Positions 2,299 to 64,000 of a stretch of 64,000 nt of DNA are shown here, piece by piece. This DNA comes from Centroscyllium fabricii. Lineage: Eukaryota. A program made the translations under genes and the position numbers. Location: assembly GCA_051313645.2 (NCBI GenBank), contig JBNRSN020000003.1:359042001-359106000 (forward strand). Reading direction: 5' to 3'. The notes beneath the pieces were generated by a model. The model was not told the origin of the DNA, made no database searches, and saw only the letters and a list, made by a program, of their open reading frames with translations. How positions within the stretch are numbered: position 1 is the first letter of the stretch; every line of letters begins with the position of its first letter.

Positions 2299-3176
2299 CA
2301 CTCCCCCCCCCAGTCACACACTCCCCCCAATCACACACTCCCGGCCCCCAGTCACACACTCCCCCAATCACACTCCTCCCCCCAATCACACACTCCCCCT
2401 CCCAGTCACACACTCCCCCCAGTCACACACTCCCCCCCCAGTCACGACACACCCCTCCGTCACACACTCCGCCACCGTCACACCCCTCCGTGTCACTAAC
2501 TCCCCCGCAGTCACAGCCCCCAGTAACGACACCCCCCTCCGTCACACATTCCGCCACCGTCACACCCCTCCCAGTCACACACTCCCCCACAGTTACACAC
2601 TCCCCCGTCACCCACTCAACCCCAGTCACACACTCTCCCCCAGTCACACACTCTCCCCCAGTCACACACTCACCCACCCCAGTCACAGACTCCCTCCCAG
2701 TCACACACTACCCCCCAGTCATTCTCCCCCAGTCACAGACTCCCTCCCAGTCACACACTACCCCCCAGTCATTCTCCCGCAGTCACTCTCGCCCCCCCAG
2801 ACAGTCTCGCCCCCAGTCACACTCTCCCCCCCCCCAGTCACTCTCCCCCCCCCCAGTCACTCTCCCCCCCCCCAGTCACTCTCCCCCCAGTCACTCTCTC
2901 CCCTCCAGGTCACTCACCCCCCCGTCACTCTCCCCAATCACCCCCCCCCCAATCACTCGCCCCCAGTCACTCCCTCCCATTCCCCCCAGTCACTCCCTCC
3001 CATTCCCCTCGTCACTTGCCCCCAGTCAACCCCCAGTCACTCCCCAAATCACTCAATTTAATTTCATTCTCTCCCCCTTCCAGTCACGCTCTCCAACCCT
3101 CAGTAACTCTCTCCCCCCAGTCACTCTCTCGTCACTCTCCCCCCCGTCACTCTCCCCCGTCACTCTCCACCACCCA

Positions 3177-10694: not shown

Positions 10695-13600
10695 TCAAAT
10701 TCAAATTCAAATTCAAATAGCTTTATTGGCATGAATGGTATCAACCGTTGTTGCCAAAGCATTGCAATATACATAAAAAAATAGTATATTAACAGACATA
10801 ATAACAACAGTACAAACAGAATATATATAACAGCATCCGTAATTATATCAATAGATATATAGTTTAAATGCAGTTTGTCACAGTGGTTTAACTGTGATCA
10901 GATTGGGACTGGGATGTCCAATGTTCAAGTGTTCTCTTGCGTCATGGCATGCTGTCACGTATTCTGCAGCTAACTCGAGAAGTTCTGGTGTTTCTCCCAG
11001 ACATATGCGTATTTTTTCGTCACATGTTTTGCTGTCATATGGTGGGATATTGTTTCTAACTTGATTTAGGAAAGCTCCTCTGAGGGAATCATATGCTGGG
11101 CATGAGAGGAGAAAATGGAATTCCGTTTCTATCTCTCCTGAATCACAATTTTTACATATCCTCTTTTCTCTTGGTGTCCATTGTTTCCTATGGCGTCCCT
11201 TTTCTATTTCTAGTTTGTGGTTACTCAGTCTGTACATTGTTAATGTCCGTCTTTGTTTGAGGTTTTTTATATTAACAAGGTACTGTGCTAATGTGTAATT
11301 TTTATTCAATGATCGATAGCATTCTAATTTGTTTATATAGTTGATTTCGTGTAGCCAATTTCCGATGTATTCTGATTTATTTTTGTTGTCTATTGTTTTT
11401 AGATCTTTGTTTGAAAGATTGTGAAGGGCCTCATTTTGGAGATTATGTGTTTCCTTGATATGTTGCAGGCGGTCTGTCTCTGAGCAGAGGGAGTTGCTCA
11501 TGAATGCTCTGTGTTGGTAGGACTCGGGGTTAGACTGGGCTAAGTGAGCCTGAAATTTAATGGCCCTTTTTTCCATGTTGACGGACAAAGGGAACTGACC
11601 CAGCTCTGCTCTGCAGGCATGGTTCGGGCTGTTTCTATTGATTTTGAAGATGTCTTTACAGAACTCAAGGTGTAGTTTTTCTGTAGGATTTGTGTCCCAT
11701 GATGCGCGTTTTTGGTTTATAAGAGGTCCCCATACCTCACTCCCATACAGAAGAATAGGTTGAATTAGCGTTTTGAAGATTTTTAGCCAAATTTTTATTG
11801 GGGGGTTGAATTTGTTTATTGACCGTCTGATGCAATAGTAGGCCCTGCGTGCTTTATCTGTCAATGCATTCATGGCTTTGTCGAATCTGCCCGACGCACT
11901 GATTGTTATTCCTAGATAGTTGTATTCCGTAGTGTGTTGTAATGTGGTTTCCCCTAGAGTAAATCGGTATTTGGATGCCTGTGATCTGGCTTTTTTCTGA
12001 AACACCATAATCTTGGTTTTATTTAGATTTATGTCTAGTGCCCAGTTTTTACAGTAGTTCTCTAACAGTGATAGGTTCTGCTGCAAACCTTGTTCTGTAG
12101 GAGATATCAGGACCAGGTCGTCTGCGTACATGAGGAACTTGATTTATTTTCCGTGTAGAGATAATGTAGGACTTGGGGATTGTTCGAGTATATTCGCCAG
12201 TTTGTTAATGTAGATGTTGAATAGTGTAGGAGATAGGTTGCAGCCTTGGTGAACTCCTCGATTCTGAGTGAAAAGCTCAGTTCTTTTGTGACCAATTTTC
12301 ACAGAGCATTTGTTAGCAGAGTATTTGGATTTAATTAGATCATATATTTTACCACCTATCCCACTTTGAAGGAGTTGAAACAGTAGTCCATTATGCCAAA
12401 TTGAGTCAAATGCCTTTTTTAGGTCTACAAAACAGGCAAATATTTTTCCTTTTTTTTTTTGTGGACCTGGTTTTTGATGAGTGTATGTAAAGTGTAAATG
12501 TGGTCTGATGTTTGATGTTTGGGTAAGAAACCGATTTGGCTCTTTGATAGGACATTGTGTTCAGTTAGGTATGTTAGTAGTCTGGTGTTGAGTATGCTAC
12601 AAAAGACTTTTCCAAGGTTACTATTGACGCATATCCCTCTATAGTTGTTGGGGTCAAATTTGTCCCCGTTTTTGAATATTGGGGTGATGAGTCCTTTGTT
12701 CCAGATCGTGGGGAAACTTCCTGTTTTCAGTACTAAGTTAAAAAGTTTCAGGATGGCAATCTGAAGTTTAGGACTACTGTGTTTCAGCATTTCTGGGTTA
12801 ATGTTGTCGATTCCACAAGCCTTTCCTTTTTTAAGGGTTTTGAGTTTTTGTTGTAGTTCTTTAATTGTGACGGGATAGTCAAGAGCACATTGGTTATCTT
12901 TTATTGCAGTCTCTAATACTTTTAGTTTTTCAATAATTGAGGTCTGGTTAGAGTTTGGACTGTGACTTTCTGGGTTCTTATAAAGGTCTTCAAAGTAGTT
13001 TTTCCAGATCTTGCCATTTTGGATTGGAGTGTTCTCTTTATGAGGAGTTGGATTCATTTTTTTCCATAAATGCCAGAATGTATTTTCGTTGACGGCTTTT
13101 TCGATTTTGGCTAGTTCTCTCTCCATGTATTGTGTTTTTTTTACACGGAGCTGTTTCCTATATTGCTGTAAGGCCTTAAGGTATTCATGGCGTTTTATCT
13201 GGTCGTTTTGGTTTCTATGTTTTTTGTTTGACAATATCCTCAGTTTTTTCCTTGATGAAGCACATTCTTTGTCAAACCATTTCTCTTTTTGTTGTGTGCT
13301 TGGTTTTCTACTTGTTGACATTTTTAGTTTAGATTTTTTTGCCAAATGGATAAATATTTTGTTTAGATCGCATGTGGCCAAATTAATGTTTTTTTTATTG
13401 AGTTGATACTGTGTATTCAGAAATGTATCTAGTATGTATTGTGTTTCATCACAGTATAGTGCTGCAGTGTAGTCAGTTGTACTATTCTCTGTCCATTTGT
13501 ATTTCCTTGGAAGAGGGAGGAGGTTGGGTTTAGTGTTCGGGTTCTCTTTGTGTGTCACTGCTTTTTTTAAGTATAAGGTTGTTTGGCAGTGGTCTGATAT

Positions 13601-14278
13601 GGGAAGTTGGGGCGAGACTACGAATGCATTGATATGTTGAGGTTCCATGTCAGTAATGGCATAATTTACCACGCTATTTCCCAGCACGGAGCAGTAGGTG
13701 AATCTACCTAGAAAGTCCCCCCTGAACCTGCCATTAATAATGTACAAACCCAGACCTTTGCACATTTGAATTACCTGTTTGCCGGTTTTATTTACTACAC
13801 TGTCATAACTTTTTCTCTGTGTGGTTATGGAGGTTTGGTATAAAGGGGTTTGTCTAAATATATGTTTGTTTCCTTCCACACTGATAAAATCTGGCTCCCT
13901 ACCGGTCCTGGCATTAAGGTCACCACTTAGTAGGATTGATCCTAGATTTTGGAAATGACTTATTTCCTTTTGGAGATTTTTAAAGTCCTCCTCTACGTGG
14001 TAGGGGGAATTTAAAGGTGGGATATAGGCTGCACACAGATAGACATCCCTGCTGTTTTCCAAGATACCTGTATTGATCTTAATCCAAATATGGTTTTTTC
14101 CTTTCTTGACTGCTGAAATTGAGTCTTTGTGCTCCCCTTTATACCACACGAGGATCCCGCCGGAGTCTCTGCCATTTTTGACATGGGCCAGTTTTACAGA
14201 GGGAACGATGAGTTCTATGTAGTTGTTCGGACAATTGGAGTGTTTTATGTTCCAGGTTTCAGTCAAAATAATTATATC
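10695..14278 (-). mobile_element. RTE-X-like LINE, near-complete APE+RT+zinc finger ORF, frameshift in an A-run near 12455 and in-frame TAA near 12145
   Basis: ILTETW, GDLNAR, SDH, NNYRGI, GVHQGCNLSP, MYADD and a C-terminal CCHC finger. (TTTGAA)n tail after AATAAA. Confidence 0.85.
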
Positions 14279-15124
14279 CCCCCCCCCCCCCCCCAAGTCA
14301 CTCCCCCCCCCCCAAGTCACTCCCCCCCCCAAGTCACTCACCCCAAATCACCTCCCCCCCCAAATCACTCCCCCCCCCAAATCACTCCCCCCCCCCCCCA
14401 AATCACTCCCCCCCCCCCAAATCACTCCCCCCCCCCAAATCACTCCCCCCCCCCAAATCACTCCCCCCCCCCAAATCACTCCCCCCCCCCCCAAATCACT
14501 CCCCCCCCCCCCCGCCAAATCACTCCCCCCCCCCCCGCCAAATCACTCCCCCCCCCCCCCCAAATCACTCCCCTCCCCCCCCCCCCCCCAAAATCACTCC
14601 CCCCTCAAGTCACTCCTCCCCCTCCTGCTCCCAGCTCCTGGGGACGGAAGCAGGAAATGTGGCCTATCTGGAGGCTGAGCCCCGCCGGCAGAGCGCCCGC
14701 TAATCTGTTCGATGCCATTGAGAGCGTCTTGAATGAAGTTGAATGTTGCTCGCTGCCTGTTGCGGGCACTGAGCTGGCCGCCCTGCCTCTGCTCCTTCAG
14801 TGAGTGCCTGTGTTAATCTTCAATGAACATTGTGTGCCGGAGATTGTTTTTATCTTTGTGGGTGTCGCTGGCGAACCCGGCATTTCTCCAGAAACTTTGC
14901 TCTCTGCTGTTTGGTGCCATTCGAGTCTTTGATGTGCTGCCATTTTCCAGAAACGGCTGTGAGCAAATCGCTGTCCTGTGGGTTGTGACAATCGCTTCTC
15001 AGCAACTGGATGTGGACCTTGCTGCTGAGTGGGGACTGGGGCTGGTCCGGAATAAATCGGGCGGCCCGAACCTTGGCTTGTCCTCCCCGGGCTCAGCTCC
15101 TCACTGAAGGTGAGTCCCTGCACT

Positions 15125-15300
15125 GGGGGGGGAGGACAGGACGGGGGGTGAGGGGGGCAGGACGGGGGGGTCAGGGGGGCAGGACGGGGGGTAGGGGGGC
15201 AGGGGGGGTGAGGGACAGGACAGGGGGGGAGGAGGGGAGGGGGGGAGGGGGGGAGGACAGGACAGGGGGAGGGGGGGAGGACAGGACAGGGGGAGGGGGC
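15125..15300. repeat. G-rich low-complexity repeat (Gn-GGACAGGAC)
   Basis: Repeated GGACAGGAC cores between G runs. Confidence 0.8.
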
Positions 15301-15899
15301 ACAATCAAAGCTCAGCCACAGCGGCCAGAGTCCGGCTGCTTGCCGGAGTTGTCCCACTGGCGGGGGTGGCTTCGCTCAACACCAGCTCACAATCGCTCGC
15401 ATCATCCGGAACTTGTGTTTGCCACAGTCAGCAGCGATTGCATTGCCAAGTGTGTGCAGAAAGTTCAGAGGCGGTAATGTGCAGATAGTCGGTGTGCCTG
15501 CATTCTCAGCAAGAGGGTGGATCTGGTGTCAGTGCTGCGGTGGGAACACTTCGCTTTGTAGCTGGCGTCATGTTGCTCTTCCCGCCCAAAACCCCTCTCC
15601 GGACGTCGCTCTGTGTCCCGCTACCACCGAGCCGCAGTAGAAATTTAGATGTTGCCTCAGTTGCACAAGATGGATTTAAAAAATCGGAATATTAGGAACA
15701 GGAGCAGACTATTGAGCCCCTCAAGCCTGCTCTGTCAGTCAATGAGATCATGTCTAAGATGTACCTCAGCTACATTTACCTGCCTTTGCCCCATGACCCT
15801 TTGTAACAAAAAAATGATCAACCTCAGTCTAGAATACTTCAATAGTCTTAGCAGCCACAGTCTTTATCATATATTTGTATAATGTTGAATTCAGTATTA

Positions 15900-44755: not shown

Positions 44756-45542
44756 AATTCAATTCAATTCAATTCAAGTTTTATTGTCATTGCAGAGTAC
44801 TAGTACAATACAACGAGACGAAGACTTGACTCTCCCGAGAGTAGTGCAAATAAAAATAAATAAATTACATGCAAAATGCATACAGTAGAGTACATTATCA
44901 GGCGTGCAGGTACCGGAGTTTCTTTTTAGAGTTCAGGAGGCTGACAGCCCTGGGGAAGAAGCTGTTCTGAAATCTAGTCGTGCGGGTGCTAATTGCTCTG
45001 TAGCGTCTCCCGGAGGGCAGGGGGGCGAACAGACTGTGGCTGGGGTGTGTGGGGTCTTTAATAATGTTCATAGACCTCCGTAAGCAGCGTTTGAGGTAGA
45101 TGCTTTCCATTGCCGGTAGCTGTGTACCGGTAATTCGTTGGGCAGTTTTGACTACCCGCTGCAGGGTTTTCCGGTCCGAGATAGTGCAATTACCATACCA
45201 GACAGTGATGCAGCTTGTCAGTATGCTTTCTATTGTGCAGCGGTAGAAGTTGGAGAGGATGCCGGATGACAGCCTGGCTTTCTTCAGCTTCCTTAGGAAG
45301 TACAGGCGCTGTTGGGCCTTCCTAACCAGAGAGGAGGTGTTTAGTGACCAGGAGAGATCTTCCGAGATGTGGACCCCGAGGAACTTGAAGCTGGACACCC
45401 TTTCCACCTCAGCCCCTTGGATGAAGATGGGGGTGTGTCTTCTGCTTCCAGTCCTCCGGAAGTCCACTATGATCTCCTTGGTTTTCTTGGTGTTCAGTGC
45501 CAGGTTGTTGTCGGCACACCAACCCACAAGGCGCTGGATCTC
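44756..45542 (-). mobile_element. 5'-truncated Rex1/Babar LINE
   Basis: ORF 44898-45527 is almost identical to the C-terminus of ORF 3321-4691; same 3' UTR and (TTGAA)n tail. Confidence 0.92.
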
Positions 45543-45824
45543 TGCAACAGAGTATGCACTGCAACATCAGTTATATAAATAATCCTCTTTGAACAATAAG
45601 TTGTCATTATTTATATTTAAAGCGGTGACCATACTAGTAAGTGCTTTCAACAATTTGTAAGAGTTGGGTATTCAATTTTACAGTGCCCTGGCATTACTGG
45701 AAGAACATTTCTGAAGCATAGATTTGGCCACTATTTGAAGTACTCACGTAATATACTCTATGACTAGTTTTATTTCTCATACAAAAGCTGTCAGTTGTTC
45801 ACTTTATTTGGGGATCTCTGGAGG

Positions 45825-46355
45825 CACAAGTAAGGAATGTGATGGAATACTCACCATTTGCCTGGATGAGTGCAGCTCCAACAATACTTAATAACTCGAT
45901 ACCATCCAAGACAAAGCAGCACATTTGATTGGCACCCCATCCACCACCTTAAACATTCACTCCCTCCACCACCAGTGTACCGTGGCTGCAGTGTGTACCA
46001 TCTACAAGATGCACTGCATCAACTCACCAAGGCTTCTTTGACAGCACCTCCCAAACCCGTGACCTCTTCCACCTAGAAGGACAAGGGCAGCAGGCGCATG
46101 GGAACACCACCACCTCCAAGTTACCCTCCAAGTCACACACCATCCTGACTTTGAAATATATCACTGATCCTTCATTGTTGCTGGGTCAAAATCCTGGAAC
46201 TCCCTCCCTAACAGCACTGGGGGACCACCTTCACCACACGGACTGCAGCGGTTCAAGAAGGCGGCTCACCACCACCTTCTCAAGGGCAACTAGGAATGGG
46301 CAATAAATGCTGGCATTGCCAGCGGTGCCCTGATCTCATAAACAATTTTTTTTAA
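45825..46355 (+). mobile_element. LINE 3' fragment (CR1/L2 group), same family as 59060-63245
   Basis: AQVRNVMEYSPFAWMSAAP...FKKAAHHHLLKGN matches ORF 59120-59956. Confidence 0.8.
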
Positions 46356-48587
46356 AGTTCCAAGCTAAGGAGAGAAACCTACTTTGAACTTCAGCAAAGT
46401 CTCAGAACCTCTGTGAAATTTCTTACAACTTATTTCACAATTGAGGGTAAAATAGAGGATGCCTAAAAATGATACTAGCTGGAAGAAATATACTCGTTCT
46501 GGAAAACTCTTGTTTTCTTTCTTATGTTGCTACGAATGGTCAATGTGGCATCTTTCACTTGACCTATCCTTGAACATACAGAGGGCCAGGTAGTTCTTGG
46601 TGAGCCTCTCCTGTGTGTGCCACTAATGCAACGTTCAACGCAGACCTCAGCTACTGCAGCCAATGAACCCAAAAACAGTGTGGGTGTTTGAAAGCTTAAG
46701 GACTGTTATGACGTGCAGTTGTTGAAGTAAAGCCATAACAATAAATGTATTGAAAGAGCCACCTGATCTGGGATGGTGATGCTGTTAAACTGCAGTAGAT
46801 TGGATGATGAATAGGGTAGCCTGTTGTTGCCTGTGATACCAGAGGGGTAATTGCTGATTCTGCATTTCTGGCCTTGACCGCTGGGAGTGCAAGTGCTCAG
46901 AACATGTGTCGAGTTCACCCAAATTTCCGATTTGTGCTCCCGATGGGCGAAAATTACACCTTGGATCTAAACCTACAAAATATTGAATTATTGCAAAAGA
47001 ACACAAGTTAGTAAAAGGTAAATGTCATTGTTTGTGTCTGGAACTATCTCACTCCTGAAGTCGGTTTAGAATTTGTACCTTCACATAAGCAAAACTGATT
47101 GTAGTTCATCAGCTCTTGGATGTGGGTGTGAAAGCAACTTTGAGGCAGTAGTTATCCCAAAGTGACTGCTCTCAATATCAGTGTCTGTAGGGATCTCAGC
47201 AGATTTGAGTTATACTGCCAACTGCATGCTGCACTAAGCTTAGTGACAAGGGAGCAATGCTTCCTCTGCAGCTAATTTTTAATGCCAAGAGAGCATTCAT
47301 ATTGAAAAATAAGATTATCAAGGTCCCAGTAGATCCAGTACTCTGTTGGCCCATTTATTAAAGGTGGCTTCTCACTAGGCTGGAGTTATATTCCACCTTG
47401 TGGGACGCCAAGCAATGAGATTCTCTTTCAACTATTGGTTTAGTGTGTTTGGGCGTTACATTGCTGACGGGACTGCCACGCAACATGGCTACGTTTCTGT
47501 TCAGCACCTGAAACCGTTTCATATCGATGCAAAAGTGTCAGTATAAGTGGAGCATTAATATCCTATAATTGTATGACTGGGGGGTTGCTTCATGTTTATT
47601 GTATGATTTGTAAACTGGTAAGAAGTTAATGTGCTCCATTCTGTTGCAAAAGGTTCGTTCACATAGAGGCACATGACACAAACTGATCAGTGGCAAATAT
47701 TGTTTAATATGGACCAATGTAAGAGACTGTATATTGAAGTAGAAATAGGAATCATTCACATTTTACGTGAAAGGATGAGGTCAAGTGGGAGGAAAGGACT
47801 TCTTTATCTGAACCGATATTGTAAATGCTCCGTTTTTCCGAAATGGTGTTTTTCATTTATGATGTACCTGAGGTGTGTTGTTAGCAAGAAGCAAAAGTGG
47901 AAATGATTTTACTTGAATATATGATGTAAAATAGAGTGCAAATACACCACATCCCATCTTAACACTGACTGAAACATTTGGAAATGCTGGGACTATTATA
48001 ATATACATTTTTATGCCAGGACTGTTTAAAAATCTCTTAGAAAGTGGATCATAAGAACATAAGAAATAGGAGCAGGAGTAGGCCAATCGGCCCCTCGAGC
48101 CTGCTCCGCCATTCAATAAGATCACGGCTGATCTGATCCTCAAATCTACTTTCACTCTCCAGCCTGCCCGAACCCATGTGATCTCCCGGGAGAGGCGAAA
48201 AACCAGGTATAAACCCTGTGGCCAATTTGGGAGAAAAAATCTGGGAAATTCCTCTCCGACCCATCTAGGCAATCGAAAACTGGTCCAGGAGATCACATGG
48301 CTGATCGGAACCTAGCCTTACGTCCACTTACCTGCCTGCTCACCATAACCCCTAATTCCCTTTACTTCCAAGAAACTGTCTATCTCGATTTTAAATTTAT
48401 TCAATGTAGCAGCTTCCACAGCTCTCCGGGGCAGCAAATTCAACAGACCCACCACCCTCTGAGTGAAGAAGTTTCTTCTTATCTCAGTTTTGAAAGCCAT
48501 GATGTGGAGGTGCTGGTGTTGGACTGGGGTGGACAAATGTAAGAAGTCACACAACACCAGGTTATAGTCCAACAGTTTTATTTGAAA

Positions 48588-48624
48588 TCACAAGCTTTCG
48601 GAGCGCTGCTCCTTCGTCAGGTGA
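48588..48624 (-). ncRNA. Minimal type I hammerhead ribozyme motif
   Basis: Reverse complement TCAC-CTGACGA-AGGAGC AGC GCTCC-GAAA-GCTT-GTGA. Confidence 0.75.
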
Positions 48625-48844
48625 AGTGAAGAGATGCACATAGGCACAGCATATATAGTCAGAAAACAATGCTAGATGATTACAGGTAATTTTTCTAACT
48701 GCCCTTTATCACACCTCGGCAGAGAGATAATCACCGCAATCAAAGGTGTAAATGGTGTCCAAACAGGTCAGTCAGCAAAACATTCCATCAAAGAACAATG
48801 ATTTGGGGTCACAAGAGGTCAACTGCATCTTTTCACTTCACCTG

Positions 48845-50387
48845 GCCTTGGAAATAGTGGATGCATTGACTATCATTTTCCAACATTCCATGGACTCTGG
48901 AGCAGTTCCGATGGAGTGGAGGGTGGCTAACGTAACCCCACTTTTTAAAAAAGGAGGGAGGGAGAAAACAGGGAATTACAGACCGGTCAGCCTGACATCG
49001 GTAGTGGGTAAAATGATGGAATCAATTATTAAGGATGTCATAGCAGACCATTTGGAAAGTGGTGACATGATAGGTCCAAGTCAGCATGGATTTGTGAAAG
49101 GGAAATCATGCTTGACAAATCTTCTGGAATTTTGTGAGGATGTTTCCAATAGAGTAGACAAGGGAGAACCAGTTGATGTGGTGTATTTGGACTTTCAGAA
49201 GGCTTTCGACAAGGTCCCACACAAGAGATTGGTGTGCAAAGTTAAAGCACATGGGATTGGGGGCAATGTATTGACGTGGATTGAGAACTGGTTGGCACAC
49301 AGGAAACAAAGAGTAGGAGTAAACGGGTACTTTTCAGAATGGCAGGCAGTGACCAGCGGGGTACCGCAAGGTTCGGTGCTGGGGCCCCAGCTGTTTACAT
49401 TATATATTAATGATTTGGACGAAGGGATTAAATGTTGTATCTCCAAATTTGCGGATGACACTAAATTGGGAGGCAGTGTGAGCTGCAAGGAGGATGCTAA
49501 GAGGCTACAGAGTGACTTCGACAGGTTGGGTGAATGGGCAAATGTATGGCAGATGACGTACAATGTGGATAAATGTGAGGTTATCCACTTTGGCGGTAAA
49601 AATAGAGAGACAGACTATTATCTGAATGGTGACAGATTAGGGAAAGGGGAGGTGCAACGAGACCTGGGCGTCATGGTACATCAGTCACTGAAGGTGGAAA
49701 TGCAGGTACAGCAGGCAATCAAGAAAGCAAATGGCATGTTGGCCTTCATAGCGAGGGGATTTGAGTACAGGAGTAGGGAGGTGTTGCTGCAGTTGTACAG
49801 GGCCTTGGTGAGGCCACACTTGGAGTATTGTGTGCAATTTTGGTCTCCTAACTTGAGGAAGGACATTCTTGCTGTTGAGGGAGTGCAGCGAAGGTTTACT
49901 AGATTGATTCCCGGGATGGCCGGACTGACATATCAAGAAAGACTGGATCAACTGAACTTGTACTCTCTGGAGTTCAGAAGAATGAGGGAGGATCTCATAG
50001 AAACGTTTAAAATACGGACGGGTTTAGACAGGTTAGATGCGGGCAGCATGTTCCCATTGTTGGGGAAGTCCAGAACCAGGGGGCACAGACTTAGGATAAC
50101 GGGTAAGCCATTTAGGACCGAGATGAGGAGAAACTTCTTCACCCAGAGAGTGGTGAACCTGTGGAATTCTCTACCACAGAAAGTTGTTGAGGCCAGTTCA
50201 CTAAATATATTCAAAAGGGAGTTAGATGTAATACTTACAACTAGGGGGATCAAGGGATATGGCGAGAAAGCAGGAATGGGGTACTGATGTAGCATGTTCA
50301 GCCATGAACGTGTTGAATGGCGGTGCAGGCTCGAAGGGCCGAATGGGCTACTCCTGCACCTATTTTCTATGTATGTATCTATGTATC
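48845..50387 (+). mobile_element. Young 5'-truncated CR1 LINE with an uninterrupted RT frame (about 480 codons)
   Basis: ORF to 50287 with [35 protein letters not shown]; CR1 3' UTR and (TATG)n tail. Confidence 0.92.
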
Positions 50388-52270
50388 AGCCGCACTCAGA
50401 TTACAGTCCAGAGTGTCACCCGAGCACAACGTAATGCCATCCATGCTCTCAAGACCAACGCAACATCGTCATCAAACCAGCAGACACAGGAGGAGCAATC
50501 GTCATACAGAACAGAATGGACTATTGCAAAGAAGCATACCGACAACTGGACAACCAAGAACACTACAGACAGTTACCCGAAAATCTGACTAGAGAACACA
50601 CCCACCAACTCAACAGACTGATCAAGAACTTCGATCCAGACCATAAGAGCATCCTACGCGCTCTCATCCCACGTACTCCCCGCGTGGGAGACTTCTACTG
50701 CCTGCCAAAGATACACAAAGCCAACACACCCGGACGCCCTATCGTATCAGGCAACGGAACCCTGTGAGAGAACCTCTGGATACATCGAGGGCATTCTGAA
50801 ACCCATCGCACAGGGAACCCCCAGCTTCTGTCGCGGCACTACAGACTTCTTACAGAAACTCAGCACCCACGGATCAGTTGAACCAGGAACACTCCTCGCC
50901 ATGATGGACGTCTCAGCACGCTACACCAGTATCCCGCACGATGACGGCATCGCTGCGACAGCCTCAGTACTTAACACCGACAACAGCCCACCTCCAGACG
51001 CCATCCCACAACTCATCCGCTTCATCCTTGACCACGATTCTTCACCTTCGACAACCAGTTGTTTACCCAAACACACGGAACAGCCATGGGGACCTAATTC
51101 ACACCCCAATACGCCAACATCTTCATGCACAAGTTCGAGCAAGACTTCTTCACTGCAGAGGACCTCCAACCAATGCTATACACCAGATACATCGAAGACA
51201 TTTTCCTCCTATGGACCCACGGCGAAGAATCACTGAAAAGACTACACGATAACATCAACAAGTTCCATCCCACCATCAAACTCACCATGGACTACTCCTC
51301 AGTGGGTTTCATTCGTGGACACACGAATCTCCATCAAAGACGGACACCTCAGTATTTCACTCTACCGCAAGCTCACGGACAACCTCACGATGCTCCACTA
51401 CTCCAGCTTCCACCCTAACCACATTAAAGAAGCCATCCCCTATGGACAAGCCCTGCGAATATACAGGATCTGCTCAGATGAGGAAGAACGCGATGGACAC
51501 CTACAGACGCTGAAAGATGCCCTCCTAAGAACGGGATATGATACTCGACTCGTCGATCGACAGTTCCGACGGGCCACAGCGAAAAATTGCATAGACCTCC
51601 TCAGAAGACAAACACGGACACAACCAACAGAGTACCCTTCGCCGTCCAGTACTTCCCTGGAGCTGAGAAACGATGCCATGTTCTTTGCAGCCTTCAACAT
51701 GTCATCGATGACGACAAACACCTCGCTAAGGCCATCCCCACGCCTCCACTACTCGCCTTCAAACAGCCGCCTAACCTCAAACAGACCATCATTTGCAGCA
51801 AATTACCCAACTTTCAGGAGAATACACGACAACGCAAAATCGTCGAGCAGAGGCTGATTGCCAAGTTCCGCACCCATGAGCACGGCCTCAACCGTGATAT
51901 TGGGTTTATGTCACGCTACATGTGACCCCGCCTGGCGTGGAGTCGTCCAGACCCGAACCATCTTTGGCTTGCTCTGCAATTTTGAGTAAGAAAAATCATG
52001 GTTTTTATAAAAAAAGTAATACTGTGGGACTTACAGCAGACTAGCGTTAGGCCCTGTGACTGCACCCCTTTGATGTGTTTTTTTTTTTGCTTTAATAAAG
52101 GGGATAAAAATCATTCTGTGTGTTTTGAGCATGTGACCACCCTTGCAATTGTGCCCCATTGTTCGCAGATTGAGGTGTTAAGGTATGCTAATATGCTTGT
52201 GTGCTCTAGGGGAAGAGGTCGGATTTCTCCCTTCCTCCGATATGTGTGATCTTTAAATCAGTCTCTTCTG

Positions 52271-52307
52271 TCACCTGAGGAAGGAGCAGCGCTCCGAAAG
52301 CTTGTGA
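52271..52307 (+). ncRNA. Minimal type I hammerhead ribozyme motif
   Basis: TCAC-CTGAGGA-AGGAGC AGC GCTCC-GAAA-GCTT-GTGA. Confidence 0.75.
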
Positions 52308-53187
52308 TTTAAAATAAAACGTTGGACTATAAACCTGGTGTTGTGTGACTTTTTGCATTTCTCCACATTATAACTTTCAGGAGAACAGCGACCACGACAT
52401 ATCACAACCCTGCCACAGCAGCCTCTGCAAGACATGCCAGATCATCAACACAGATACCATCATCACATGGGAGGACACCACCCACCAGTTACATGGTACA
52501 TACTCATGTGACTCAGCCAACGTTGTCTTCCTCATATGTTGCAGGAAAGGATGCCCCGGAACATGGCACATCGGCGAGACCATGCAGACACTACAACAAT
52601 AGATGAACGGACACCGCACAACAATCGCCAGGCAGGCGTGTTCCCTCCCAGTTGGGGAACACTTCAGCAGTCAAGGACATTCGGCCTCCGATCTTCGGAT
52701 AAGCATTCTCCAAGGTGGCCTTCAAGACACACGCGAATGCAAAATCTTCGAGCATAAACTGATAGCCAAGTTCCGCACTCATGACGACGGCCTCAACTGG
52801 GATCTTGGCTTCATGTCATGCAACATGTAACCCCACCTGACGTAGAGTCATCCAGACTCGAGTCGTCGTTGGCTTGTTCTCTCTACACAGATGCGGCTGG
52901 ACCTGCTGTGATTTCCAGCAAAATACACTTTTTTTTGCATTTTATTTTTCATTGCTTTGTTTTTTGTTTTTCATACAGCATGTGCAACATTTGTCCTCTT
53001 GTGACCCCACCTCATTGGTCTTTGATGGAATATTTTGGTGACGTGCTGTTTGGACACCATTTACACCTTTGATTGCAGTGATTATCTCTCTGCCGAGGTG
53101 TGATAAAGGGCAGTTAGAAAAATTACCTGTAATCATCTAGCATTGTTTTCTGACTATATATGCTGTGCCTATGTGCATCTTTTCACT

Positions 53188-53224
53188 TCACCTGACGAAG
53201 GAGCAGCGCTCCGAAAGCTTGTGA
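53188..53224 (+). ncRNA. Minimal type I hammerhead ribozyme motif
   Basis: TCAC-CTGACGA-AGGAGC AGC GCTCC-GAAA-GCTT-GTGA. Confidence 0.78.
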
Positions 53225-53697
53225 TTTCTAATAAAACTGTTGGACTATAACCTGGTGTTGTGTGACTTCTTACAGTTTTGAAAGGGCAGCCCCTTATTCT
53301 CAGATTATGCCCCCTAGTTCTAGTCTCACCCATCAGTAGAAACATCATCACCGCATCCACCCGATCAAGCCCCTTCACAACCTTATATGTTTCGCTAAGA
53401 TCGCCTCTCACTCTTCTGTACTCCAATGAGTAGAGGCCCAACCTACTCAACCTTTCCTCATAAGTCAACCCCCTCATCTCCGGAATCAACCGAGTGAATC
53501 TTCTCTGAACTGCCTCGAGAGCAAGTATATCCTTTCTCAAATATAAACCAAAACTGCACACAGTATTCCAGATGTGGCTTCACCAACACCCTGTATAACT
53601 GCAGCAGGACTTCCCTGTTTTTATACTCCACCACCCTTGCAATAAAGGCCAAGATTCTATTGGCCTTCCGGATCACCTGCTGTACCTGTATACTAAC

Positions 53698-56600
53698 TGT
53701 GGTAATATTGAACAGACTTCTGGGGGAAGGCTAAGGCGTGAACTCTGCACATGTCACTTCCTGTTTTCTGTTAGTATAAATACTGCAACTGCTCAGTATG
53801 GGGTGAACGCTTCACCTGGAAGCATGGTAAAACCCGTCTTTGTACATAGTGATAATGTAGTGAATTAAAGCTTTGCTTTGCTTTAAGTTATTGATGTATC
53901 AGACTCGATTATTACATCAATTTAATCCACTAAAAACTTCACGCTCAAAATCCTTAAAACTTTTGGACAGCATGGAACTGAGGATCCAGGGACCAACCCA
54001 TCATGGAAAGCCTCCTCAAACTGACTCGCCTGGATCTGGACCAACATGGACCAGCAGCTGCCAAGGTTTGGAAGCATTGGTTCCATACTTTTGAGAATTT
54101 TCTTGAAGAATGTTGTGAGGATGCCTCTACCAAACTACGATTACTTGTGAATTATGTGTCCCCAAACGTATATGAATATGTTGATAAATGGGATAACTAT
54201 AATGAGGTAATCCAAGCACTGAAAGAACTATATACTAAGGCCCCAAACGAGGCCTATGCTAGACATTTACTGTCCACGGCCCAACAAAGGCCAGGGCAAG
54301 CGATTCAGGAGTTCCTTCAAGAACTTCGCAGGCTCAGTGTAGATTGTAATTTTAAGAAAGCCTCGGCTGAGATGCTTTCATCTGCGGGATCGCCTCACCA
54401 TTTATACGCCAGCATCTGCTAGAGAGAAAAACGCTTGAGCTATCAGAAGGCTTTTGACCTGGTTTCTGCTCTGGACTTGGCAAAAAAAAAATGCAGACCT
54501 CTATCAGCTGCCCAGAACTCTTTTATTTAAAACCAAATAGAAAAACACCATTATTTACAATATTTACAAAACAAAATAAAACCCCACATTACCACGCTTG
54601 AGCCGCGGCAAACTCCCAAGCCCCAATGTCCACAAGGTAGGGGTCAAAGTTTCAAGCCCTCCTGCCTACGAGGCAGGGGTCAAAGTCACAAGTCCATATG
54701 CCCACAAGGCAGGGGTAAAAGTCACAAGCCCTCATGCCCACAAGGCAGGGGTCACGACCACAAGTCCTCATGGCCGCAGGCAGGGGTCCAAATTTGCCAA
54801 GCTTTCTGGTCTTCGTCGCCCGCCCATCCGGACAGCGGGTCTCCGGAAAAACACAAAGACGAGGGTCGGCGCTCTCAGCGAACGGCTGGTACAGATCCGG
54901 CAGTCTCTCGACCTGCTGCTGCAACTGCAATCAGACCATTCAAGGGGCCTCAGGTGAACCCTATCATGGAAGAATCTAATCCTGATGAGTTCAATGATGA
55001 GGAGGAGGATGACCCCACTTTAGCAGCCTCTTGGCAATCTAGGAAGAAATGCTTCTTTTGTGGAGACTCTTTCCACCCTAGGAAATTCTGCCCTGCTCGC
55101 AATGCAATCTGCAGTCATGCAGTAAAAAGGGACACTTTGCAAAAGTCTGCCAATCAAGAGCCTCTACGAGGGCCTATCAAGCTAAGGCCTACCGAGCTGC
55201 CCCAATTAGGGCCTATCAAGATGCTCCAGCTGGGACCTATCGAGCTCCCTCCCAAAGAAACACACCTAGAATTACAGCCTCCCTCTGTGCAACCACACCA
55301 ATTACAGCTGCCTGGCCTCAAAATTTATTTCATGCAGCTACAAAAGTCTCGATTAATGGGCATACCTTTGATGCCTTAATTGACTCAGGAAGTACTGATA
55401 GTTTCATTAGAGAACAGATTGTTGAGCAATTGAAACTACATGTCTTCCCAATGGACCAGGCAATTGCAATGGCTCAGTCATCACTTAACACCAGAATCTC
55501 CGGCTTTTGTATTTTTGACATGACACTTAATGGCCGCATGTATCCCTCCACTCGGCTCTCAGTGCTCAAGGACTTATGTAGTGATCTTATCCTAGGGCTG
55601 GATTTTCAAAAACAGCATAAAAAACTCGTCATTGAGTTCGGCGGATCCAAACCTGGACTTACTATTTCTAATGTACCGTCTAAATCACCATTTTGTGCAC
55701 TCAGCAGCCTCACTTGATGAACCCTCATTATTCGCCAGTATTCCTCCTCAATGCAAACCAATAATAACCAAATCTCGACGCTTCAGTCAGGAAGATCAAT
55801 CTTTCATTGAGACAGAAATCTCTCGTCTTTTAGCAGAGGACATCATCGAACCATGTTCATCGCCCTGGCGGGCTCAAATTGTCATTGTTAAGAACCTTCT
55901 AAAACTTCACAAAAAACGACTATGCATCGATTACTCTCAAACCGTCAATCAATATACTGACCTGGACGCCTACCCATTGCCACGCATTGATGACATGGTT
56001 AATAAACTGGCTGAATACAAAGTGTTCTCAACCTATGATTTAAAGACTGCCTATCATCAGGTACCCCTACGGGTCTCAGATAAGAAGTACACGGCTTTTG
56101 AGGCTAATGGACGGCTGTATCAATTTCGTCGCCTCCCATTCAGGGTCACTAATGGAGTGGCTGTCTTCCAACGGGCAATGGATGGCCTCGTTGAGCAGGA
56201 AAACTTAAGGGATAATTTTCCCTACGTTGATACATAGATACATACATAGATACCATTACTGTTGCAGACCACGACCAGCAGGAACATGATGCCAACCTCC
56301 AAAGATTTCGGGATGCTCTCCATCACCGTAACTTAACTTTAAATGAATCCAAATCTGTGGAGTCGCAACCGACCATCAACATTCTTGGCTACTGCGTAGG
56401 CAATGGTATCATTAAACCAGACCCGGAAAGACTTCGCCCGCTCCAGGAGCTCCCTCCACCTAACAATCCGGCTTCATTACGTCGGGCCCTCGGTCTGTTT
56501 GCATACTATGCTGAATGGATTCTGAATTTTTCAGATAAAATTCAGCCCTTGCTGAATGCTAGAACATTTCCGTTGGGAACAGTGGCTGTTGCAGCCTTTA

Positions 56601-58618
56601 ACCTTCTCAAGAAACAGTTGGAGAAAGCGACTCTTCACTCCATCAATGAGGACCTCCCTTTCGTAGTCGAATGTGATGCCTCGGAGGTGGCGATCTCAGC
56701 TACTCTAAATCAAGAAGGCCGTCCTGTAGCATTCATGTCCAGGACCTTACAAGGTGCCGAGATACATTATCCTCCAGTTGAGAAGGAAGCCACAGCCATC
56801 ATAGAGGCAGTACGAAAGTGGAACCATTTCCTAGCTCGCCGGCACTTTACATTAATCACGGACCAGCGATCAGTCGCCTTCATGCTCGATAATCGAAAGC
56901 GAACTAATATTAAGAACAATAAAATACAGCTTTGGAGGATCGAATTGGCCTCTTTTGGTTACACCATTCACTATCGACCTGGCAAGCAGAATGTGGCCCC
57001 GGATACCCTCACACGAGCATTCTGCTCTGCTATGTCATCCTCTACTCTCATAGACATCCATGATGGATTGTGTCAGCCTGGCGTGACTCGCATGCTACAT
57101 TTCGTGCGATCACGGAATCTCCCATTTTCTACTGGAGATATGAAAAAAAATGTGCTCCGAATGCTGAATTTGTGCAGAATTGAAACCTCAGTTCTTCCGC
57201 CCCCCAGATGGTGCGCTCATACATGCAACCGAACCGATGCAACGACTTAGCGTCGACTTCAAGGGCCCATTGCCCTCTTCAACACGGAACACATATTTGC
57301 TCACAATGATCGATGAATATTCATGATTTCTGTTTGCCTTCCCCTGCTCCAATATGCTGGCATCCACTGTAATCAACTGCCTTGAGCAAGTATTTTCTCT
57401 TTATAGCATGGTGGCCAACATTCACTCGGATCGGGGTCCATCTTTTATGTCAAGCGAACTGAAGGACTACCTCTCAGAACGGGGAATTGCGACAAGCAAA
57501 ACAACGCCATATCATCCCATCGGGAATGGACAGGTAGAGAGATATAACGGAATCATCTGGAATTCCGTACGGCTTGCTTTGAAATCTCAGAGCATACCAA
57601 TCCAGCAATGGGAAGCAGTGCTTCCGGATGCATTACACTCTGTATGGTCCCTTCTGTCTACAGCCACAAATACTACACCTCATGAATGGTTCTTTCGATT
57701 CCAGCGTCGCTCATCTTATGGGGCATCTCTTCCATCATGGCTAACTCTCTTCCAGAACCCGTACTGCTCCGAAGATACGTTCGGACATCTAAAAATGACC
57801 CTCTCGTAGATGAGGTCGAACTAACTGATGCCAACCCTACCTATGCCTACATACGATATCCCGACGGTTGAGAGTCTACCGTATCATTGCGGGACCTGGC
57901 ACCCTGCCCACCAGGACCTAGAGGGACACCAAGGGATAATATTCTACCAGGGGCCTCCAGGAACCCACCGGGTACCACTCTCCAGGACCCGGATCTGATA
58001 CCAACTAGCTTTGCGCCGGTCAAATCCCACACTCAAAAGTTACGACCCGCTAAGTACCTCTTTCCAGGACACTGACCAGACACCAACCGACTCTGAGCCC
58101 GTGGTGGCTCGTACACGGAGTCATGATCCTCCCGCTGCCTCACGCTAAAGTGCTAATTGGCCGCAGACCAGCTCTGTGCCTTCCCCTGACCAGGGACAAA
58201 CCAGCTCTGCGCCTATTGGAGCTCGTACGCGGAGCCATGATTCCCCGACCCTTCACAGGGTAATACAGGCCACGCAGGTTCTGACCCGTGGCCAACAGCA
58301 GGTAAACGGTCCAGAGACCCAGACGGGTGCGTCTCCTCCTTGTTCGGCTACTCCGGAATAAAAAGAAGATTCCCGCCTTTTAATTTTGCAGGAGGAAAGA
58401 ATGTGGTAATATTGAACAGACTTCCGGGGGAAGGCTAAGGGGTGAACTCTGTACATGTCACTTCCTGTTTTCTGTTAGTATAAATACTGGAACTGCTCAA
58501 TATGGGGTGAACGCTTCACCTGGAAGCATGGTAAAACCCGTCTTTGTACACAGTGATAATGTAGTGGATTAAAGCTTTGCTTTAAGTTATTGATGTATCA
58601 GATTCCATTATTACATCA
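53698..58618 (+). mobile_element. Full-length but disrupted Gypsy/Ty3 LTR retrotransposon (LTRs 53698-53919 and 58402-58618; gag-PR-RT-RH-IN)
   Basis: CTAAC 5-bp TSD; TG..CA LTRs differing by about 9 substitutions and a 5-bp indel; PPT 58390-58401. CFFCG knuckle, LIDSGS protease, SPWRAQ/RLCIDY/DAYPLP RT, ECDAS/EKEA/TDQ RNase H, HSDRG/GNGQVER integrase. Confidence 0.95.
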
Positions 58619-59059
58619 CTAACCTTCTGTGTTTCATGCACCATGACCCTCAGGTCCCCTTTGTACTGTAGAACTTTGAACTTTCTCTCCATTCAGATAA
58701 TAGTTTGCTCTTTGATTTTTTTGCCAAAGTGCATAACCTCACACTTTCCAACATTATATTCCATCTGCCAAATCTTTGCCCACTCACCTAGCCTGTCCAT
58801 GTCCCTTTGCAGGTTTTTGATGTCCTCCTCACTCACTGCTTTCCCTCCTATCTTAGTATTGTCGGCAAACTTGGATACATTGCACTCGGTCCCTTCCTCC
58901 AAATCATTAATATAGATTGTAAAAAGTTGGGGTCCCAGCACTGACCGCTGCGGAACACCACTAGTCACTGATTTCCAATCCAAGAATGAACCATTTATCC
59001 CAACTCTCTGTTTTCTGTTAGATAGCCAATCTTCCACCCATGCCAGTATATATATGTTT

Positions 59060-62000
59060 TTATCCATTGATGGGATGTGGGCGTCGCTGGCTGGCTAGGC
59101 CTGCATTTAGTGCCCATCCCTAATTGCCCTTGAGAAGATGGTGGTGAGCTGCCTTCTTGAACTGCTGCAGTCCATATGGTGTAGGTACACCCACAATGTT
59201 GTTAGGAAGGGAGCGCCAGGATTTTGGCCCAGCGACAGTGAAGGAGCGGCGATACAGATCCAAGTCAGGATGGTGTGTGGCTTGGAGGGGATCGTGTATG
59301 GGGTGATGTTCCCATGTGTCTGCTGCCCTTGTCCTTCTAAGTGGTAGAGGTCGCGGGTTTGGAAGGTGCTGTTGAAGGAGCTTTGGCGAGTTGCTGCAGT
59401 GCTTCTTGTAGATGGTACACACTGCAGCCACAGTGCGCTGGTGGTGGAGGGAGTGAATGTTGAAGGTGGTGGATGGAGTGCCAATCAAGCGGCCTACTTT
59501 ATCCTGAATGGTGTCGAGCTTCTTGAGTGTTGTTGGAGCTGCACTCATCCAGGCAAGTGGAGAGTATTCCATCACACTCCTGACTTGTGCCTTGTAGATG
59601 CTGGAAAGGCTTTGGGGAGTCAGGAGGTGAGACACTCGCTGCAGAATTCCCAGCCTCTGGCCTGCTCTTGCAGCCACAGTATTTATTTGGCTGGTCCAGT
59701 TCAGTTTCTGATCAATGGTAACCCCCAGGATGTTGATAGTGGGGGATTTGGCAATGATAATGCCATTGAATGTCAAGGGGAGATGGTTAGAGTCTCGCTT
59801 GTTGGAGATGGTCATTACCTGGCACTTGTGTGGTGCGAATGTTACTTGCCACTTGTCAGCCCAAAGCCTGAATGTTGTCCAGGTCTTGCTGTATATGGAC
59901 ACTGACTGCGTCAGTATCTGATGAGTCTTGGATGGTGCTGAACAGTGTGCAATCATCAGCGAAGATCCCTACTTCTGACCTTATGATGGAGGGAAGGTCA
60001 TTGATGAAACAGCTGAAGATGGTTGGGCCTGGGACACTGCTCTGAGGAACTCCTGCAGTGGTGTCCTGTGGTTGAGATGAATGACCTCCAAAACCACAGC
60101 CAACTTCCTTTGTGCTAGGTATGATTCCAACCAATGGAGAGTATGATTCCAACCAATGGAGAGTTTTCCCCTTGATTCCCATTGACTTCAGCTTTGCTAG
60201 GGCTCCTTGATGCCACACTCGATCAAATGCTGCCTTGATGTCAAGGGCAGTCACTCTCACCTCACCTCTTGAGTTCAGCTCTTTTGTCCATTTTGTCTTT
60301 TGTAAGGATCTCCACAGGGCCATCAGCGAGCAGCAGACCGCGCATCCGATAGGAGCCTTTATCGTGGCGGGGGACTTCAACCACGCTAAATTCAAATCCG
60401 TACTCCCGAAATTTCACAAGAATGTCTCCTGCACCACGAGGGGCGAGAACATGCTGGACCAGGTCTACACCAACATCGCAGAGGCTTACAAAGCCATCCC
60501 GTGCCCCCACCTCGGGAATTCCGACCAACTTTCACTGTTCCTCACCACAGCATACAAACCACTCATCAAAAGGGTGAAAGCTTCAGCCAAATCAGTCAGG
60601 GTATGGCCAGAAGGGGCAGTCTCAGAGCTACAAGACTGCTTCGAACGCACTGAATGCAGCATGTTCGCTCACACGGACATCGAGGAATACGCATCCACAG
60701 TGCTATTTTACATCAACAGCTGTGTCGAGGTGGTCACTACCCAAAAAACCATCAAGACATTCCCCAACCAGAAACCCTGGATGAACGGGGAGGTCCGCTC
60801 GCTGCTGAAGGCACGTGACGCAGCTTTCAAATCTGGGGATGTGGCGGCTTACAGCACAGCCAGAGCCAACCTAAAGAGGGGTATCAGGTCTGCCAAACAA
60901 AATCAGACACTGAAGATAGAGGAACACTTTCACAACAACTCGGATCCTCGACGTATGTGGCAAGGCGTACAGTCCATCACGGACTACAAGTGCAAAAACA
61001 CCAGCCCCCCGACCAGCGATGCCTCCCTACCGGAGGAACTCAACAACTTCTACGCTCGCATCTACAGGGACAACAGGGAGCCAGCCACTAAAGTCCTGCA
61101 ATCCCCAGAAGACCAACCATTAACACTGTCCTCCTCCGACGTAAGAGGTGCTCTACGTGGAGTGAACGCACGGAAGGCCGCGGGTCCTGATGGCATCCCC
61201 GGCCGGGCACTCAAAGAATGTGCCGACCAACTAGCTGAAGTCTTCACCGACATCTTCAACCTGTCACTGGCGAAGGCAGCTGTCCCTACCTGCTTCAAGA
61301 CCGCCACCATCATCCCTGTGCCCAAGAAAATGGCCGTGACGTGCCTGAACGACTACCGCCCTGTCGCACTTACACTCATAATCATGAAGTGTTTCGAGCG
61401 GCTGGTCCTGGCCCACATCAAAGCCAACGTCCCCGCCGCCCTGGACCAATACCAGTTCGGCTACCGAGGAAACAGATCAACGGAAGATGCTATCACTACG
61501 GCTCTTCACTCTGCACTAAACCACCTGGATAGCAAAGATATGTATATCAGAATGCTGTTTATTGACTACAGCTCAGCATTCAACACCATCGTCCCCAGCA
61601 AGTTGTCTACCAAACTCCTCACCCTCGGCCTGAACACCTCCCTCTGCACCTGGACCCTGGACTTCCTAAGCAACAGACCACAGTCTGTGAAGTTAGGCAA
61701 CCTCACCTCCCCCCACTTACCCTGAACACAGGGGCTCCAGAAGTCTGTGTGCTGAGCCCCCTCCTCTGCTCCCTCTTCACTCACGACTGTGCAGCTGTCC
61801 ATGGCTCCAACACGATCATCAAGTTTGCGCACGACACCACGGTGGTTGGCCAGATCACCAACAACGATGAGTCAGCCTACAGGGATGAGATACAGCGCCT
61901 TGTGGGATGGTGTGCCGACAACAACCTGGCACTGAACACCAGGAAAACTAAGGAGATCATAGTGGACTTCCGGAGGACTGAAAGCAGAAGACACACCCCC

Positions 62001-63245
62001 ATCTTCATCCAAGGGGCTGAGGTGGAAAGGGTGTCCAGCTTCAAGTTCCTCGGGGTCCACATCTCGGAAGACCTCTCCTGGTCACTAAACACCTCCTCTC
62101 TGGTTAAGAAGACCCAACAGTGCCTGTACTTCCTAAGGAAGCTGAAAAAAGCCAGGTTGTCATCCGGCATCCTCTCCAACTTCTACCGCTGCACAATCGA
62201 AAGTATACTGACAAGCTGCATTACAGTCTGGTATGGAAATTGCACAATCTCGGACCGGAAGGCCCTGCAGCGGGTAGTCAAAACTGCCCAGCGAATCACC
62301 GGTACCCAGCTACCATCAATTGAAAGCATCTGCCTCAAACACTGCCTACGGAGGTCTCTGAACATTATTAAAGACCCCACACACCCCAGCCACAGTCTGT
62401 TCGCCCCCCTGCCCTCCGGGAGACGCTCAGATCAATTCGCACCCGCACGACTAGATTTAAGAACAGCTTCTTCCCCAGGGCTGTCAGCCTCCTGAACTCT
62501 TAAAAAAACAAACCTCCGGTCCCTGCACACCTGAAAATGTACTTTACTGCATGCAATTTAAATGTAATTTATTTGCACTACTCTCGGGAGTGGCGAATCT
62601 TCGTCTCGTTGTATTGTACTAGTACTCTGCAATGACAATAAAACTTGAATTGAATTGAATGTTTGGACCAAGGCTGTAATGAGGTCAGGAGCTGAGTGGC
62701 CCTGGCGGAACCCAAACTGGGTGTCAGTTAGCAGGTTATTGCTGAGTAAGTGCCGTTTGATAGCACTGTCGACGACACCTTCCATCACTTTGCTGATGAT
62801 TGAGAGTAGACTGATGGGACAGTAATTGGCCGGGTCAGATTTGTCCTGCTTTTTGTAGACAGGACATACTTGGGCAATTTTCCACATTGCTGGGTAGATA
62901 CCAGTGTTGTTGCTGTACTGGAACAGCTTGGCTAGGGGTGGAGCTAGTTTTTTAGCACAAGTCTTCAGTACTATTACCGGAATGTTGTCAGGGCCCATAG
63001 CCTTTGCAGTATCCAGTGTCTTCAGCCGTTTCTTGACATCACGTGGAGTGAATTGAATGGGCTGAAGACTGGCATCTGTGATGCTGGGGACCTCAGGAGG
63101 AGGCTGAGATGGATCATCCACTCGGCATTTCTGGCTGAAGATAGTTGCAAATGCTTCAGCATTGTCTTTTGCACTCACGTGCTGGGCTCCACCATCATTG
63201 AGGATGGGGATATTTTTGGAGCCTCCTCCTCCTGTTAACTGTTTA
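59060..63245 (-). mobile_element. 5'-truncated LINE (CR1/L2 group), split by a Rex1
   Basis: KAMGPDNIP, QFGFRQGHS..LITALVQT | WTKELNSRGEVRVTALDIKAAFDRVWH, IFADD, YKAQVRSVMEY. Confidence 0.85.
60308..62660 (+). mobile_element. 5'-truncated, frameshifted Rex1/Babar LINE
   Basis: ORFs 60235-61725 and 61749-62495 closely match the copy at 3177-5951; AATAAA plus (TTGAA)n tail. Confidence 0.92.
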
Positions 63246-64000
63246 ATTACCCCCAATCCCGTGATATTTTATCTTGTGCAGTAATCTTTTGTGTGGTACC
63301 TTGTCAAATGCCTTTTGGAAGTCCAAATACACTACATCCACTGGTTCCCCTTTATCCACCCTGTTTGTTACGTCCTCAAAGAATTCGAGCAAATTTGTCA
63401 GACATGACTTCCCTTTTGTAAAACCATGCTGACTCTGTCTGATTAAATTATGCTTATCCAAATGTCCTGTTACTGCTCCCTTAATAATGGACACCAGCAT
63501 TTTACCAACCATAGATGTTAGGCTATAGTTTCCAGCATTTGTCTGTCTCCCTTTTTAAATAAGGGCGTTACATTAGCAGTTTTCCAATCCGCTGGGACCA
63601 TTCCCGAATCGTGTGATTTTTGGAAAATTGCCACCAATGCATCCACAATCCCTACCGCTACTTCTTTCAAGACCCGAGGATGCAAGCCATCAGGTCCAGG
63701 TGATTTATCCACTTTCAGTCCCATTATTTTATCGAGTTCCACCTCCTTAATAATTTTAATCGTGTTTAGCTACTTCCCCTTTATATTCCCCTGTTTGTCT
63801 AATGTTGGAATATTTTTAGTGTCCTCTACTGTAAAAACTGATACAAAATATTTGTTCAGCGTTTTTGCCATCTCCATGTTTTCTACCACTAACTTCCCAG
63901 TCTCGTCCTCTAAGGGACCAACATTCACTTTAGCCACCCTTTTTCTCTTTATATAACTGCAGAAACTCTTGCGATCTGTTTTTATATTTTTTGCTAGTTT

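Follow-up and report, generated by a model that had tools for sequence, protein, structure and literature searches.

The window, the whole stretch of 64,000 nucleotides analysed here, belongs to a host genome of 7.2 Gb, whose repeats suggest a cartilaginous fish, and contains a Gypsy element at positions 53698-58618, a broken copy of 4.9 kb within a 5-bp target duplication. Its LTRs are identical at 208 of 217 aligned bases (9 differ) and are further distinguished by one 5-nt indel. The TG...CA ends of the LTRs, the target duplication, a polypurine tract and the order PR-RT-RNase H-IN assign the element to Ty3/gypsy, and among solved structures a relative matches Ty3 Gag-Pol best (E 8e-58). 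The features, all on the forward strand, are as follows.

53693-53697, +: target-site duplication, left copy, 5 bp (CTAAC; right copy at 58619-58623), read from the sequence
53698-53919, +: 5' LTR, 222 bp, TG...CA, from the LTR comparison and from loose contig ends at 53698 and 53919
53775-53782, +: TATA box of a putative promoter, 84 nt upstream of the paired arm; similarly spaced (73-75 nt) in two other families of the same genome
53858-53869, +: arm 1, the predicted self-primer, whose 3' end is an ATTAAA hexamer, from family copies, the cross-family table and junctions; by the same evidence, the A at 53859 begins a conserved AG plus 9 nt, and the predicted cut falls after 53869
53870-53888, +: hairpin P2, directly 3' of arm 1; the window copy has a 5-nt duplication here, and the family has a deletion hotspot
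53890-53921, +: inner stem P3, in which 53890-53898 pairs with 53913-53921 across the LTR end, from the fold and a compensatory change in a sister family
53920, +: one-base spacer between the LTR end and the predicted primer-binding site, from CA plus A before arm 2 in 26 of 28 families and from 44 of 45 aberrant junctions
53921-53932, +: arm 2, the predicted primer-binding site, complementary to arm 1 and lacking TGG, from the sequence and the cross-family table
54003-57900, +: coding region for gag-PR-RT-RNase H-IN, interrupted by stop codons, frameshifts and insertions; no chromodomain
58388-58401, +: polypurine tract, read from the sequence
58402-58618, +: 3' LTR, 217 bp, whose copy of arm 1 (58562-58573) is a perfect complement of arm 2, from the sequence and the LTR comparison

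Within the coding region, approximately 390 bp of the window copy (54516-54907), with four 36-bp tandem units at 54609-54788, are missing from other family copies, and a 23-nt stretch of the RT gene (56228-56250) is an exact inverted copy of 50366-50388 in a neighbouring repeat. The element is flanked (45000-53690 and 58620-64000) by fragments of non-LTR retrotransposons and by short repeats, lying on both strands. Positions 1-15400 are GC-rich and strongly skewed, have long overlapping open frames in several frames, and are probably a tandem repeat.

An earlier note on this DNA had claimed that the leader folds back onto its own LTR at the place where a tRNA primer-binding site is expected. 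We confirmed that the inverted repeat is real. The 5' LTR is followed not by TGG but by one A (53920) and then by the 12-nt arm 2 (53921-53932), whose reverse complement occurs exactly at 58562-58573 in the 3' LTR and, with one mismatch, at 53858-53869 in the 5' LTR. This mismatch results from a G-to-A change private to few copies; the LTR arm is perfect in 25 of 30 family copies and the leader arm in 28. When the upstream LTR was shuffled, a complement of at least 11 of 12 bases appeared in 6 of 5000 trials, and the fold of the 75-nt segment has a z-score of -3.3. The predicted fold of the mutated window copy retains only 5 of the 12 outer pairs; for a copy with a perfect arm, the predicted mean pair probability of the outer helix is 0.87.

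Pairing of the arms across families

Copies within the family were too similar (approximately 95%) for a covariation test, which was dropped. The arms were compared instead in a cross-family table of 28 families whose LTR end could be read, each entered with one representative (25 taken from metagenome loci and 3 from the host genome); loci that lacked upstream sequence or were rearranged there were excluded, and the metagenome scan used the best 80 of 428 loci. The outer arms pair at 10.5 or more of 12 positions in 26 of the 28 families, with different letters in the same geometry. The two deviating families are L102, which has no outer helix, and L071, which is paired only with a bulge. At positions 5-12, cognate arms form 7.6 of 8 Watson-Crick pairs against 4.2 for non-cognate arms, and none of 20,000 family permutations scored as high; the cognate scores are inflated by the selection of arm 2 strings from visible inverted repeats and of arm 1 by best register, and the permutation keeps the shared ancestry of the families in. 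Pairing exceeds chance up to position 16 and is at chance level at positions 17-19. The loop between the arms measures 31-77 nt and ends with CA plus A in 26 of 28 families, and in 23 of 28 arm 1 terminates with a run of A and then a purine and C. In a sister family from the host genome, two positions of the outer helix and one of the inner helix are changed on both sides.

The inner stem drawn in the earlier note (P3) is present. Its conservation across families is only marginal: it is strong in 7 of 26 families, and 42 of 1000 shuffles were as good overall. The better conserved hairpin is P2, which the note had overlooked. A stem of at least 4 pairs beginning at +12, the first base past arm 1, is found in 19 of 26 families, and 0 of 2000 shuffles that kept the first five bases scored as high. 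The extra duplexes expected of Tf1-type self-priming are thus represented by a significant P2 and a marginal P3.

The end of arm 1 and the short hairpin (53865-53888 and the family copies) are also a deletion hotspot. At least 10 bases are lost in 982 pattern matches against 4984 intact ones, compared with 3 for a control hairpin of that LTR. The hotspot state is discordant in 8 of 9 LTR pairs; most of these deletions therefore arose after insertion, and the hotspot was rejected as evidence of strand transfer.

Aberrant junctions in the host genome

The host genome contains 116 aberrant junctions, in which the LTR end, one base and arm 2 run into inverted LTR or U3, against 2592 normal LTR-leader junctions. 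These putative failed cDNAs mostly lie in inserts that lack the leader, and every one of them links arm 1 to the upstream U3, TATA box included. When the spacer was left free to vary from 0 to 8 nt, it was exactly one base in 44 of 45 junctions (42 A and 2 G).

We sorted 100 listed loci and 13 more by eye. Among the 100, a clean deletion between arm 1 and P3 accounts for 61 (57 sites after duplicate removal), and 17 show a minus-sense U5 copy that halts at the border of arm 1 and then folds back or jumps. Three halt 5 nt short of the border and three turn beyond arm 1, while the remainder comprise seven read-throughs, five inversions of the inner loop and four uninformative or ambiguous cases. 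The 13 added junctions include eight at the border, three read-throughs and two others. Altogether, 31 turning points could be read, and 25 of them fall on the 3' border of arm 1, as expected if a cut of the RNA at this position frees the primer. Against this we counted that P2 copied into its complement is a hairpin again, which makes fold-back more likely at the same border; six border cases (L175, L193, L206, L217, L287 and L292) lack the P2 fold-back, and two of them jump to internal sequence via short homology. A 5-bp target duplication is present in all 14 border cases for which both ends were found. Five inserts of approximately 390 bp (L155, L177, L197, L222 and L224) have two outward-facing U3 ends; the four for which both ends were found have target duplications and contain no internal sequence. 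The product at L162 stops precisely at the 5' end of arm 1.

The clean-deletion class is identical in sequence to a plain deletion, was picked by pattern and accounts for no more than 2 among the first 100 deletions there, and was down-weighted as precise evidence of the primer. An origin in reverse transcription is indicated by the over-representation of the class among solo inserts: 47 of 55 have a target duplication, and 5 are attached to internal sequence. We rejected a pair of gag-LTR joins close to TATA+34 as a marker of the start site, since microhomology of 7-12 nt is present at each and one of them is a nested insert.

The simplest reading of the junctions suggests that strong-stop DNA, made on a template ending after arm 1, folds back, copies the primer and transfers to the 3' LTR. 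Damage at the level of the host may explain some junctions, given the deletion hotspot and the discordant LTR pairs. In Tf1, about half of the cDNA is described as still carrying a copied primer site at the 3' end, as far as the available part of that report goes (PMC11042837).

Self-priming and the alternatives

The site after the 5' LTR is complementary to the LTR of the element itself over at least 10 nt and had no tRNA match in the T-loop and ARAGORN searches described below. Priming independent of tRNA, one of two functions suggested in the earlier note, is supported by covariation throughout the lineage, by the fixed one-base register at the LTR end and by the failed products of reverse transcription in the genome. 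We consider it likely that the element primes itself as Tf1 does, with arm 2 as the primer-binding site for its own LTR arm and with the RNA cut after that arm, no tRNA being involved.

The process would begin with the pairing of arm 1 and arm 2 in a fixed register, one base before which the LTR ends, as sequence and covariation indicate. Comparison of families suggests that a short hairpin starting at the first base past arm 1 would then complete a compact multi-helix junction with a loop of 31-77 nt. The failed cDNAs point to a template that ends at the border between arm 1 and the hairpin, so that minus-strand strong-stop DNA would be approximately 50 nt long. By analogy with Tf1, the cut may be made by the RNase H of the element. 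The hexamer, usually the end of arm 1, would set the 3' end of the RNA 15-30 nt downstream, leaving just enough repeat for the first strand transfer. The primer itself would be 11-16 nt counted from the conserved AG, which we favour for the lineage, or a capped piece of approximately 60 nt if the TATA box is used.

The AG lies at -11/-10 in 22 of 28 families, and its context is initiator-like, by the initiator consensus, in 10 of 26 against a background of 0.24. The LTR upstream of the AG is only approximately 40 nt long in two families. A start at the AG would give an 11-nt primer, the same length as in Tf1. Against a strict 11-nt primer we counted that pairing often extends over 13-16 bases and that TATA-like boxes occur 73-84 nt upstream in three families of the host genome. 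We found no downstream promoter element at +28, and no joints or molecule ends in four contig sets. A bolder reading, which we hold somewhat less likely than not, is that the 11-nt segment serves in a compact RNA switch as transcript start, primer and poly(A) signal at once, that an old and large animal lineage outside the chromoviruses evolved self-priming independently, and that dozens of failed cDNAs in the genome map both the primer end and the cut to the nucleotide.

As a separate observation, the LTR upstream of arm 1 in L036, L055, L070, L071, L072, L102 and L109 contains pyrimidine tracts ending in CAG. These are putative splice acceptors 15-70 nt upstream of the arm end and might reflect cis- or trans-splicing.

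Four other explanations were weighed. The 3' end of the genomic RNA could act as the primer, if the RNA ended at the copy of arm 1 in the 3' LTR and paired with the site after the 5' LTR. The joining of arm 1 to the upstream U3 in all aberrant junctions agrees with this, as does the run of A at the end of arm 1, which could merge with the tail. The join to U3 is, however, also explained by transfer of a copied primer to the 3' LTR; the template would stay intact through arm 1 of the 5' LTR, yet the turning points cluster at the 3' border of that arm, and an extra run of A is seen at 0 of the first 100 deletion junctions. Polyadenylation cleaves downstream of its hexamer, and where the hexamer is the arm itself the cleavage should fall beyond it. 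We therefore regard priming by the RNA 3' end as improbable.

The second function proposed in the earlier note was that the pairing conceals the 5' poly(A) signal. As the only function, in the manner of the HIV-1 hairpin and with another RNA as primer, this deserves little credence. It accords with a pairing that can form only at the 5' LTR and with the canonical hexamer (AATAAA/ATTAAA) forming the last six bases of arm 1 in 16 of 28 families, but the remaining 12 families are still paired although their arm has no canonical hexamer (three of these have one further downstream). Masking needs no fixed one-base register and leaves the template ends at the arm border unexplained, and no other primer site adjoins the LTR. 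Of the two suggested functions, masking is thus the weaker, and it has at most a secondary role.

The inverted repeat could also be a structural by-product of packaging, dimerisation or integrase end processing, with the junctions produced by host rearrangement at a fragile hairpin. The strength of the deletion hotspot and the origin of most of its deletions after LTR duplication speak for this reading, which we nevertheless judge very improbable: the aberrant junctions have the LTR-leader base despite lacking the leader, a full inversion of the loop with leader, which would be the required intermediate, was seen in 0 of 100, solo-LTR recombination does not generate inserts that have two U3 ends and a target duplication, and the element would still need a primer.

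Least credible is priming by a small host RNA that shares the sequence of arm 1, whether a tRNA, a piece of one or another kind. This reading draws on the half-tRNA priming known in Ty1/copia lineages (in the available part of PMC6317226), but is opposed by the lack of TGG, by the lack of an Rfam match and by a site that varies from family to family in step with the LTR, even between families of one genome. In a search that covered tRNA genes ending in the sequence of arm 1, none fits: the terminal 10 bases of the arm, placed downstream of nothing but ahead of a T-loop motif, gave 4 matches against 3 in a reversed control, and ARAGORN called a tRNA at 0 of the 4.

Lineage and comparison with known systems

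The homologues of the element are single-ORF polyproteins of approximately 1200 aa, and those with a named source belong to crustaceans, a soft coral and a leafhopper; no relatives were found in viral contigs. The absence of a chromodomain, claimed in the earlier note for the element, extends to its relatives: neither a chromodomain nor a Tf2-type SH3 domain was found in 42 proteins (25 of the 28 Pfam families listed) or among the precomputed domains of 120 homologues, and sushi-type copies in the same genome have both. RT identity to six sushi-type RTs of this genome is 27-29%. In a quick, unrooted RT tree, a branch of length 2.9 (SH-aLRT 100) sets these six apart. The RT is thus separate from sushi-type RTs, and the tree, which covers only two groups and has no root, shows distance rather than independent origin. 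On the basis of the sequences, the best reading is that this lineage would work like Tf1 in self-priming and lies outside the Tf1/sushi group. Loci L268-L278 are sushi-type chromoviruses of the same genome; a self-complement of 9-11 nt occurs in 3 of the 5 copies whose LTRs were found, and several of these loci carry nested elements of the lineage to which the window copy belongs.

We found no report of self-priming in a non-chromovirus animal Gypsy lineage in the open literature; subscription papers and Repbase reports could hold one. If the reading is correct, a second, distant Gypsy lineage, present in crustaceans, soft coral, insects and the host genome, primes itself, and priming without a tRNA would have either several origins or a greater age than assumed. 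The complete signal spans approximately 75 nt and comes with natural compensatory variants, which makes the cut and the priming step testable with short RNAs. A self-complementary site would also explain why such elements escape tools that require a tRNA site, and the failed cDNAs of large genomes could serve as a record of reverse-transcription intermediates.

Among known systems, HIV-1 conceals its 5' poly(A) signal in the 5' poly(A) hairpin and likewise has a poly(A) hexamer in a helix at the 5' end. Unlike in HIV-1, the partner strand here is found at the primer-binding position, beyond the LTR, and the arms still pair in families that have lost the hexamer. The Mag lineage and unnamed invertebrate Gypsy clades (Cigr-1, MolGy) are, like the present lineage, animal non-chromovirus Gypsy elements. 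The double CCHC knuckle in Gag here resembles that of Mag. Molluscs have many unplaced Gypsy clades according to a survey whose main text, as available, does not mention primer-binding sites (0 hits for PBS or primer; PMC6238403).

Self-priming has been described for Tf1/sushi and predicted for Tcn1 and TAR (available parts of PMC6317226, PMC4600332, PMC6934838, PMC5006619 and PMC3601003). In the accessible portions of the literature, self-primed reverse transcription is presented as demonstrated for fission-yeast Tf1 only and is treated as a mark of Tf1/sushi. The predicted self-primers of the TAR lineage (plant Ty1/copia elements such as Houba and Osr-1) and the Tcn1 chromoviruses have a complement of at least 10 bases located 0-5 bp after the 5' LTR, as the element here does; they differ in belonging to another superfamily or to the chromoviruses, in plants, and in having no fossil cDNA evidence in the available part of that source (PMC6317226).

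The closest likeness is to Tf1. Its primer is the first 11 bases, cut by RNase H (PMC7175516), and a three-duplex structure around the primer helix is required (PMC10085805), according to the accessible portions of both papers. Tf1 and Tf2 of Schizosaccharomyces pombe, Tj1 and Tf1/sushi share with the present lineage the Ty3/gypsy domain order, a site complementary to their own LTR, a conserved core of approximately 11 nt in the (here predicted) primer and extra duplexes beside the primer helix, as far as the available text of these sources goes (PMC7175516, PMC10085805 and PMC4600332). In contrast to Tf1/sushi, the lineage described here has neither a chromodomain nor a Tf2-type SH3 domain, and its RT stands on a separate long branch. 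Its loop is 31-77 nt, compared with approximately 155-220 nt in three sushi-type copies with a 9-11 nt complement, its predicted primer end usually doubles as the poly(A) hexamer, and P2 starts at the predicted cut.
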